Shown: positions 20,344-23,300 of the stretch, one piece after another
Position numbering within the stretch: position 1 is the first letter of the stretch
How the letters are laid out: each line of letters begins with the position of its first letter
Assembly (NCBI RefSeq): GCF_044324875.1
Contig: NZ_CP172186.1
Strand: one strand, 5' to 3'
Length of the DNA: 64,000 nucleotides
DNA from: Escherichia coli
GTDB taxonomy: Bacteria > Pseudomonadota > Gammaproteobacteria > Enterobacterales > Enterobacteriaceae
Made by a program: the position numbers

Positions 20344-23300
20344 TCACCCGCAACAAAAATGACGTGCACAACGGTTACGGGCAGGAAACGGTCAGGGGTG
20401 TTTCAGTAAATCCTGGCGACGGGGTAACGCTGTCATGGCACCTTTTGCTGTCGTGGCAAGCGCACCACAGCGCTGGGCCTGTTCGATGACGGATGCGAGT
20501 GCCTGCTCACCGGAGGGCATCCCCTCTGCCGCCAGCGCTGCCAGCAGACCTGCCACGAAGGCGTCACCGGCACCGGTCGTGTCCACACTCACCACCGGTG
20601 TTGCCGGGAAGTACAGGTTTTTTCCCTGCCAGCGAGCCATCACGCCATCCTTTCCTTGGGTTACCAGCAGCAGTGCCAGGGGATAATGTGATGCCAGAAC
20701 ATCGGTTCCCTTCCGGACATCCTGTTCACCGCTGATAAAGAACAGTTCCTCTTCCGATACCTTTGCCACATCCGCCAGCATGAGCGCCCGGTGCAGACAC
20801 TCACGCAGTTGCGATGTGCTCTGCCACAGGTCAGTCCGGATGTTGGGGTCAAAGCTGACCCTGCCGCCAGCCTGCCGGATGTTCTCCATGGCCTGAAACG
20901 TGGCGCTGCGGCAGGGCTCTGCACTCAGGGCATTGGAGCAGGTATGCAGCCATTCACCGGCACGAAAGGGCGGTAAATCATCAGGGGTAAGGAAAAGGTC
21001 TGCCGAAGGGCGCACCATAAATGTGAAGGTTCGTTCACCACCCGGCACCAGCGACACCACCACTGTGGAAGTCCGGTACAGAGGGTCGGTATGCATATAC
21101 GCCGTGTCCACACCCTCATCAGCCAGGGTTTTGCGCATAAAACGCCCGAAAGGGTCATCCCCCACACACCCGACAAACCCGCTCAGGCCCCCCAGTCGGG
21201 CCACGCCCACGGCAACATTGGCAGGCGCACCACCAGGGCACTGCAACAGCGTGCCCGGCTTCTCCGGTAATAAATCCACCACGGCATCACCGAGACCCCA
21301 TACTTTTACTGTACTCATTCATACTCCATGATTTTCATCAGTCATATTCAGCGGATGACAGACAGCTCAAACATCGCCATATCCGTGGTTCCGGCTGGAA
21401 TTGGATACCAACCCGCATTCCGGAGCAGGGCAGCGAGGGCAGACACATCGCCGGTCAGGGGATGCAGCAACCTCCCCTGATAATCAAATGCCGCCTCAAG
21501 ACGTGAGCGGGAAAGATAAAAGCTGCCGGCATCCCCGTTCGGAACCACGACATTACGCCCCTCCCATTTCCGGTCGCTCAGTATCCGCCAGCACCAGCCC
21601 TGCTCCCTGATGGTTTCCAGGGCGAATGTCAGGCGGAACAGGTCAGTCTGTACCGACACATCACCAGAGCAGGCCTGCCACAGATACTCCAGCCTGCTGC
21701 GGATATCTTTCGCCCCGCTTTCACTCTGCAGGGCTCTGATATGTGCGGGGAAAACGGTGCTGTTTCAGTGCTGTGCTCCGCCAGCGGTTTAGAAACAGGT
21801 TTTCCTGGATTTTTGACGCAATCCGGCCATCCCGGCGGGCCAGATGCAGGGCTACCAGCCCGCACCAGGTCAGATGTGCGGCTTTCCCTGATACCAGCTG
21901 CCCGCTGGCGATATTGTCACTCATGGCGCTTACTGGCTGCTGATATCAAAAACCGGTGTTTCTCCGGCGATGACCGGGCCGGAGAACAGGGTTATCTCCT
22001 GGACACGGTCAGAGTCCGCCACAATCACCGGTGTCAGCGTGGACTGTGCTTTCTTCTGAAGTAACGCAAGGTCAAACCCGATGACGGGGTCACCGGTGCT
22101 GATCAGCTGGTCTTCCTGGGCAATACGCCGGAAACCCTCTCCCCTGAGGTCAACTGTGTTAATACCGAAGTGCACGAACAGTTCAGTGCCACTGTCGGTG
22201 CGGATGGAAAACGCGTGGTTTGTCTCCAGTATTTTACCGATAGTGCCGCTGACAGGAGCCACCAAGGTATCGCCGCCGGAAGGACGGATAGCAATACCAT
22301 CCCCCACTATTTTCCCGGCAAACACAGCATCCGGAACCGTGTCCAGAGGGACAATTTCACCGGACAGCGGTGCCATCACGCGGGTGACTTCCGCCGGTTT
22401 CTCATTTTCACTTATCAGTTGTTTAATCCTGCCCAGTAATCCCATTGTGCTTTCCTTCATTACGGGTGAACCGAAAGTACTGCCGTCACCGACGGCAGTG
22501 GAATTATTTCAGGCCAGCGTCCACAGTGAGCCGTCCGTCAGCACAGCCTCGCCGTGAGCTGCATATAGCGACAACCGGCGGGTTCCGGGCTGCGGGTAAA
22601 TACGGCTGGACAGGGTGGCATCGCCATCGTTAACGAACACTTCCACCGATGAACGGTCCAGGAAAACCCGTAGCGTCAGATATTCTGCGCCAGGCAGCGC
22701 GATACTGCGGTAACCGTCCAGCCCCTCATCCGGGTAGTGACGCCAAAGCACCAGCCGTCCTGCCTGGTTATCCACATACAGCCGGAGCCCGTCTCCCAGG
22801 TGGATGCCGTAATGCTCTGCCTGACTGTCGAGGGTATGCCACGTCAGCACCAGTTCCACGGCCTGTGCGTTCTCAGCCAGCAACTGCGTGCCACTGAGCC
22901 TTACAGGGTGTAACGGCTGGCACGTCCCGCGAAGGGATTCGGCTTCGCGAACCGGACGCTGACACAGACGACCATGGCGTTCAAAAAGTTCCCTCGGCAG
23001 GGTCAGACATCCGGCCCAGGCCTCACGCTTTGTAGGCATCGGGGAGTCCCACATATTCATCCAGGCCATGATGATGCGCCGTCCGTCCTCCGCGACCAGG
23101 GACTGCGGGGCATAAAAATCATGACCGTGATCCAGTTCTTCAAATGCCCCGCTCAGGGCAAAGGCGGCCCCCGGCTGCCAGTGACCCGGTAAAACTCCGC
23201 TCTGAAAGCGGTTGCGGAACCGGTATCCGCCGGGCGTCATCCCCTGCGGGGAGAACATCAGCCAGTGATGGTCGCCACAGCGGAAAAAGTCCGGACATTC

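Follow-up and report, generated by a model that had tools for sequence, protein, structure and literature searches.

The interval that separates the crr-like from the fructokinase gene in an Escherichia coli raffinose (raf) locus is very probably a dead passenger: a DUF2913 gene that was frameshifted, became fixed as a pseudogene and has been hitch-hiking in the locus. The window analysed here is a stretch of 64,000 nucleotides of E. coli DNA (contig NZ_CP172186.1), in which the locus and the interval are laid out as follows.

27488-28498, minus strand: rafR-like repressor gene
25268-27394, minus strand: alpha-galactosidase gene, rafA
23936-25228, minus strand: LacY-type permease gene, rafB
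22509-23939, minus strand: GH32 invertase gene, rafD
21930-22460, minus strand: gene for a crr-like PTS EIIA(Glc) paralogue, intact (PF00358, E=2.9e-42; NF006962, 234.8 bits)
21319-21929, minus strand: the whole interval, comprising the probable DUF2913 pseudogene (21348-21924) and a 29-nt fructokinase leader
21721-21924, minus strand: ORF1, 67 aa, ATG start, N-terminal piece (helices 1-2)
21711-21741, minus strand: lesion zone, the gap between the two family-profile matches
21348-21761, minus strand: second reading frame, 138 open codons, including ORF2
21348-21659, minus strand: ORF2, 103 aa, GTG start
21319-21347, minus strand: fructokinase leader, 29 nt, with GGAG at 21324-21327
20392-21318, minus strand: PfkB fructokinase gene, intact (NF006957, 477 bits)
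18796-20292, minus strand: LamB-family porin gene

The interval is exactly the space from the stop codon of the crr-like EIIA gene to the start of the fructokinase gene. An earlier note on this DNA had described a stretch of about 600 bp holding two short ORFs on the same strand, and this description is confirmed by ORFs of 67 and 103 aa. The ATG of ORF1 lies 6 nt past the stop codon of the crr-like gene. The crr-like protein is approximately 59% identical to the housekeeping Crr, and its only close relatives in a collection of 5.8 billion proteins are copies at the same raf locus. The fructokinase, compared with its counterpart in the Salmonella copy of the locus, has a pN/pS of approximately 0.13.

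Identity of the interval and its lesion

ORF1 alone reaches 21 bits against PF11140, which is under the 23-bit gathering cutoff, and ORF2 alone has no match in Pfam. When the two frames are joined (191 aa) the score rises to 33.3 bits (E=5.4e-8), passing the Pfam cutoff of 23 bits, and PHROG 15786, a family of unknown function, is matched with E=9e-45. The absence of recognisable motifs reported in the earlier note was therefore wrong. PF11140 was the sole match for the interval in Pfam at E<=1 and NCBIfam returned none. Moreover, a custom profile of the DUF2913 family was made from 72 intact homologues; its positions 8-56 align with the ORF1 frame (E=1.8e-24) and its positions 75-195 with the ORF2 frame (E=6e-36). 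At the level of sequence, the two frames are thus one split DUF2913 gene (PF11140/PHROG 15786).

The family assignment of the pieces is already known from the RefSeq annotation, which has two 'DUF2913 family protein' CDSs at the locus with the same sequences and coordinates: a protein of 67 aa for ORF1 (WP_072740748.1/WP_001313182.1) and one of 103 aa for ORF2 (WP_001313183.1). However, RefSeq lists them as two ordinary proteins and not as one frameshifted pseudogene; our reading would correct this database view from two small proteins to a single frameshifted pseudogene.

Intact relatives are single ORFs of 170-223 aa. Compared with such members, for instance WP_015493086.1 from the Klebsiella plasmid pSH9-KPC or the protein P0006 from Erwinia billingiae, the raf copy shows homology over the full length, albeit through two frames, and is only 42-50% identical to its nearest intact relatives. 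A single uninterrupted ORF of approximately 200 aa spanning both domains of the protein is absent from the raf copy. The match to the family profile stops at ...RFPRT in the ORF1 frame and restarts at KDIRSRLEYLW in the ORF2 frame, leaving profile positions 57-74 missing. The lesion zone holds 31 nt where these 18 positions (54 nt) would be expected, a net loss of 23 nt, which moves the frame by +1. The lesion is most economically accounted for by a single out-of-frame deletion, with several smaller events also possible. The stop codon of ORF1 (21721-21723) lies within the lesion zone, and the ORF1 and ORF2 frames overlap by 41 nt (21721-21761).

The AlphaFold model of intact P0006 (mean pLDDT 90.8) comprises a five-helix N-terminal domain and an alpha/beta C-terminal domain. 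The lost segment corresponds to the N-terminal half of helix 3 (residues 55-75 of the model), and the ORF2 frame covers the end of the helical domain together with the C-terminal domain. The resulting gap of 8 residues takes out a nearly invariant D, W and L. There is a second gap of 4 residues in the C-terminal domain, this one in frame. Among the 51 columns conserved at >=90%, the raf copy keeps 41 and has lost 10, including the D, W and L of helix 3. These 10 deviations are the worst of 27 sequences, the maximum among the 26 intact members being 6. Both frames are nevertheless fully open apart from the single shift, with a GC1/GC2/GC3 periodicity like that of the neighbouring functional genes. 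Open, periodic frames and 41 of 51 positions kept suggest either that inactivation is recent relative to the divergence of the family or that the pieces are still constrained. The suggestion in the earlier note of a decayed gene is borne out in the form of a frameshifted DUF2913 remnant. The clean homology to an intact small gene, which the same note had set against decay, was found in part: the match is clean, whereas the gene itself is broken.

We propose that a DUF2913 gene of approximately 200 codons, from a family at home on conjugative plasmids and ICEs of enterobacteria, lodged between the crr-like and fructokinase genes in one raf lineage. This copy would then have been shortened by a net 23 nt where the first half of helix 3 is encoded, removing the D..WL residues, shifting the frame and leaving behind the N-terminal ORF1 (67 aa) and a second frame open for 138 codons. 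Fixation of the lesion would predate the spread of this raf locus in E. coli and Salmonella. A composition scan revealed no GC break at the interval, and hence no compositional evidence of a recent insertion, and no IS remnant was found at its edges. Together with the 6-nt spacing between the crr-like gene and the DUF2913 copy, this suggests that the capture is older than the recent spread of the locus. The same spacing resembles a long-established operon arrangement more than a fresh junction, which counts against a dead passenger. Today the interval would be transcribed passively, on one long raf message shared with the fructokinase and porin genes. Translation of ORF1 probably continues through coupling to the crr-like gene, and the rest would act as untranslated or poorly translated spacer, with no role in sugar metabolism or its regulation.

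Conservation of the split and possible roles of the interval

The interval sequence was found at >=99% identity in 248 RefSeq records of E. coli, representing 245 of 5426 complete genomes; 225 of the 248 records (222 genomes) have a query coverage of at least 80%. Matching places in the E. coli RefSeq complete genomes number 253, of which 244 are chromosomal. The interval is also carried by 9 plasmids, one of them from Salmonella Saintpaul with a copy that is 98.4% identical. The identical split is present in all E. coli RefSeq records and plasmids inspected, and no intact allele of the raf-locus DUF2913 gene was found among the copies examined. There are, moreover, natural variants with further damage. 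One E. coli chromosome has lost approximately 700 bp, so that the first 57 codons of the crr-like gene are fused to the last 58 of the DUF2913 gene, and retains intact rafR, rafA, rafB, rafD, kinase and porin genes. In another lineage ORF1 carries a Q40-to-stop change along with truncation by IS3, and in yet another a group II intron is inserted in the interval copy.

Could the frameshift be an artefact of sequencing or assembly, the real gene being intact? Two database proteins (P0001 and P0022) do bridge the junction, but both stem from assemblies with many errors, where all genes of the locus are in fragments, and we rejected them as artefacts themselves. Many laboratories and platforms contributed the 225 complete-genome records that show the same split, and the Salmonella copy, with 10 substitutions in the interval, has it in identical form. 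Restoring the frame, moreover, does not remove the 8-residue gap relative to the family. The chance that the split is an artefact is consequently negligible. A further candidate for a frame-restored copy, H228, is one nucleotide shorter than the others; its indel lies within ORF2 and not at the junction, in an assembly that has other frameshifts, and it too was rejected.

The earlier note had also raised the possibility of an internal regulatory region. The interval might be kept for a role in cis, as an internal promoter for the kinase and porin genes, as an element of mRNA processing or stability, or as a small RNA. The downstream fructokinase and porin genes are intact and the kinase is constrained, from which it follows that they are expressed across or from the interval. 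The interval is also conserved in all copies, which carries little weight given that the whole locus is at least 98.4% identical. However, a consensus scan of 21319-21929 detected neither a sigma-70-like promoter nor a terminator-like hairpin, though weak signals or those of a non-sigma-70 type could escape such a scan. Rfam gave nothing above threshold in the interval (the best match, at E=0.28, was far under the gathering score), and palindromes of the RafR-operator type and raf-operator-like words were likewise absent from it. Two CCGAAACGATTCGG-type palindromes are found in the rafR-rafA intergenic region. From the ORF1 stop to the kinase start the mRNA strand is G-rich (C/G = 0.75), a composition that does not appear to be that expected of a Rho loading site. 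Moreover, a raf variant that lacks the interval places the kinase gene 95 bp past rafD, and the natural E. coli deletion variant has lost most of it. We therefore consider a role in cis very improbable.

It is also conceivable that the gene is still alive. Frameshifting by +1 at UUU-C or CCC-C could give a full-length protein with a short helix 3, or the pieces, or the ORF2 domain, could work separately. Open frames and retained coding periodicity are consistent with this, as are a T4 run and, after it, a C4 run in the overlap at 21721-21761, where re-pairing of tRNA-Phe or tRNA-Pro by +1 would be possible; +1 slippage is conceivable at CCC-N sites. The start of ORF2 lies near the domain boundary of the AlphaFold model. 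Substitutions relative to the Salmonella copy are few: 1 nonsynonymous and 3 synonymous in the C-terminal half, 4 nonsynonymous and 1 synonymous in the N-terminal half. Across all sampled variants there are 7 nonsynonymous (one of them nonsense) to 4 synonymous changes, which is too few for a test of selection. Against a living gene, no other DUF2913 member examined is split or dependent on frameshifting, and the shift coincides with the loss of approximately 8 residues that include nearly invariant ones. Neither a stop-codon-plus-Shine-Dalgarno stimulator of the prfB type nor a slippery stop is present, the ORF1 frame ending in GAG-UGA, and the GTG of ORF2 is not preceded by a convincing Shine-Dalgarno sequence. 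Natural alleles with a deletion, a nonsense codon or an IS truncation are known, and the usual partner genes of DUF2913 are missing from the raf locus. On balance we regard a functional gene as very unlikely. Slightly less probable still is continued use of the split gene either as a +1 slippage product or as ORF2 alone, for example as the leftover modulator of a former partnership with an Rpn nuclease. We nonetheless leave continued use this small share because the frames are open and codon-like and diversity is too low for a selection test.

A fixed DUF2913 pseudogene would explain the apparent gap in the operon with no hidden sugar gene or regulator. This is of little importance for the operon itself, but it helps to trace the history of raffinose loci.

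The intact DUF2913 family and its neighbours

Beyond the copies at the same locus, no relative more than approximately 50% identical to the raf copy was found in the collection of 5.8 billion proteins or among the best places listed by a tblastn search of plasmids; the 60-80% identity band of the latter has records, none of them among the best 60 places listed. Given that neither the DUF2913 copy nor the crr-like gene has close relatives outside the locus in this collection, the donor lineage is presumably unsampled. The tblastn search gave matches in 3248 of 72,556 plasmid records, mostly from Klebsiella, Salmonella and Enterobacter, and 2275 of the 3248 plasmids are typed as conjugative. Searching the GTDB species genomes with a single protein gave no result. 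A scan with the family alignment, using one genome per GTDB species, yielded 80 loci, nearly all labelled Enterobacterales. A scan of viral contigs found one locus only.

The usual setting of DUF2913 is a plasmid or ICE backbone with relaxase/Tra, ProQ/FinO and Rpn nuclease genes nearby. On Erwinia plasmid-like contigs the gene adjoins TraI, Hha or relaxase genes, on a Citrobacter chromosome it adjoins TraG and TraU, and on Klebsiella and Providencia plasmids it overlaps the 3′ end of a ProQ/FinO-family gene. The raf copy lies outside this setting, flanked instead by the crr-like EIIA and fructokinase genes. Within 5 kb of DUF2913, no homologue of the crr-like, fructokinase or GH32 genes occurs at any of the 80 species-level loci. 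This, and the fact that the interval matches PF11140 and no other family, shows that it is not the remnant of a sugar-phosphate enzyme or a PTS EIIBC component that the earlier note had entertained.

A separate observation concerns the Rpn-family (YhgA-like) nuclease gene, which directly adjoins DUF2913 at all five annotated plasmid loci, drawn from five genera, in a relative orientation that varies among them. At a sixth locus the adjoining gene is an Rpn remnant. Of the 80 species-level loci, 33 have an Rpn homologue no more than 576 nt from DUF2913; elsewhere in the flanks there are just 2 more Rpn matches. A tblastn search of the whole window found no Rpn homologue. Rpn proteins have been reported as toxin-antitoxin anti-phage nucleases, one of them plasmid-borne (PMC10327210). 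That paper contains no mention of DUF2913, which in the searchable literature appears in gene lists only, with no mention of a link to Rpn. The PADLOC models of defence systems gave no match, a comparison of the family's sequence profile with the PDB no informative match, and a Foldseek comparison of the P0006 model with viral models none that was informative either. The association with Rpn is thus one strong genomic clue to the function of the family, and the sole lead that we consider worth passing on. It offers a testable handle on a family that is common on clinically relevant plasmids of Klebsiella, Salmonella and Enterobacter.

Comparison with recoded genes and other raffinose loci

Genes with +1 frameshifting of the prfB type resemble the split gene in that two frames overlap, a +1 shift is needed to pass from one to the other, and the first ends at an in-frame UGA. 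Unlike them, the raf copy has neither a slippery stop codon nor an upstream Shine-Dalgarno-like stimulator, its shift coincides with a deletion, and its frameshift is conserved in no homologue. Compared with intact DUF2913 members, the copy is frameshifted, 8 + 4 residues short and removed from the family's usual context.

Raffinose loci come in at least three layouts; in that of the window, rafD and the kinase gene are separated by the crr-like gene and the trapped plasmid gene. The type found on an IncK2/Z plasmid of E. coli (L015) has the order rafR-A-B-D, with the kinase gene 95 bp past rafD and then a porin gene, and has neither the crr-like gene nor DUF2913. Its rafA, rafB and rafD are 83-89% identical to those of the window and its kinase 73%. 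Nucleotide similarity between the two types upstream of the kinase gene begins approximately 30 nt before the ATG, right after the DUF2913 stop codon, and within the interval only 21319-21347 shares homology with the rafD-kinase spacer of the IncK2/Z variant. The type from Citrobacter braakii (L013) has the order rafA-B-Porin_8-D; past rafD come first a crr-like gene and next an IS66 element, and DUF2913 is again absent. This crr-like gene is 62% identical to that of the window and occupies the same place after rafD. The porin of the window belongs to the LamB/ScrY family, whereas those of the IncK2/Z and Citrobacter types belong to the Porin_8 (RafY) family, the IncK2/Z porin being 62% identical to its Porin_8-type counterpart in C. 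braakii. Since the crr-like gene and the kinase gene each occur in another raf layout, both are recurrent members of raffinose loci, and DUF2913 is the element unique to the architecture of the window.

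Gene neighbours of intact DUF2913 members

One neighbour of intact DUF2913 is an Rpn-family nuclease gene (YhgA-like, PD-(D/E)XK), which directly adjoins it in all five sampled plasmids, drawn from five genera (L017-L021). Among the 80 species-level loci (L023-L102), with adjacency taken as a gap of ≤576 nt, such a gene was found next to DUF2913 in 33. The relative placement of the two genes varies, being convergent-overlapping, upstream or downstream. This association is absent from the Rpn toxin-antitoxin paper PMC10327210 and from any paper naming DUF2913. The genomic adjacency suggests a role for DUF2913 as partner or modulator of the Rpn systems found on plasmids.

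A second neighbour is a ProQ/FinO-family gene, which in some plasmids extends 4-17 nt into the beginning of DUF2913, suggesting that the two are translationally coupled there. The window itself carries an ORF with a ProQ/FinO-like segment, which shows 37% identity to the plasmid ProQ gene adjoining DUF2913 in L008. This resemblance suggests that plasmid or ICE backbone genes are present elsewhere in the window.

L008 2077-3235; L020 2881-4061; L095: plasmid loci with the ProQ/FinO-DUF2913 overlap
Window 3125-3826 (+): 233-aa ORF with a ProQ/FinO-like segment

The DUF2913 remnant and the boundaries of the raf locus

ORF1, the N-terminal piece of the frameshifted DUF2913 remnant, has Thr (ACC) at codon 19 (window 21870), and L001 is identical to the window. 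The other four compared copies that cover this codon (L002, L010, L011 and L104) all have Ala (GCC), as do at least 90% of intact DUF2913 members at the corresponding position. Therefore, by sequence comparison, the Thr in the window looks to be a derived change.

Window 16499-18559: IS3 and IS256/IS1414 fragments bounding the raf locus (compare L010, L011, L104)
Window 22479-22499 (-): 9-bp G+C-rich hairpin in the rafD/crr-like intergenic region

The same IS256 fragment as at the boundary of the window's raf locus truncates fructokinase after ~190 nt in several inspected chromosomal copies, and as a result these lack the kinase and porin. Other copies of the raf locus are cut by an IS3 element or a group II intron within or just past the crr-like/DUF2913 region. 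Directly after the rafD stop codon lies the hairpin, which is strong (-16.7 kcal/mol, z = -3.2) and is followed by ACUUUCGGUU; it may act as a partial terminator or mRNA-stabilising element, marking where the core rafABD unit ends.

Raffinose locus architectures and the crr-like gene

Raffinose loci occur in at least three architectures.

Window type (18796-28498): rafRABD, crr-like gene, DUF2913 remnant, kinase, LamB-family porin
IncK2/Z type (L015): rafRABD, kinase, Porin_8-type porin
Citrobacter type (L012/L013): rafA-B, Porin_8, D, crr-like gene

The LamB-family porin of the window shares only 22-25% identity with its IncK2/Z-type and Citrobacter-type counterparts. Despite this, the window-type locus is treated under the name 'rafY' in some genome papers.

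Window 21930-22460 (-): crr-like EIIA(Glc) paralogue

No close relatives of this paralogue were found outside raf loci. It sits in a non-PTS raffinose operon with a LacY-type permease, and one idea is that it may be connected with inducer exclusion or with catabolite signalling. Its identity to housekeeping Crr is only ~59%, and the Citrobacter raf locus carries a counterpart, placed after rafD, that is 62% identical to it.
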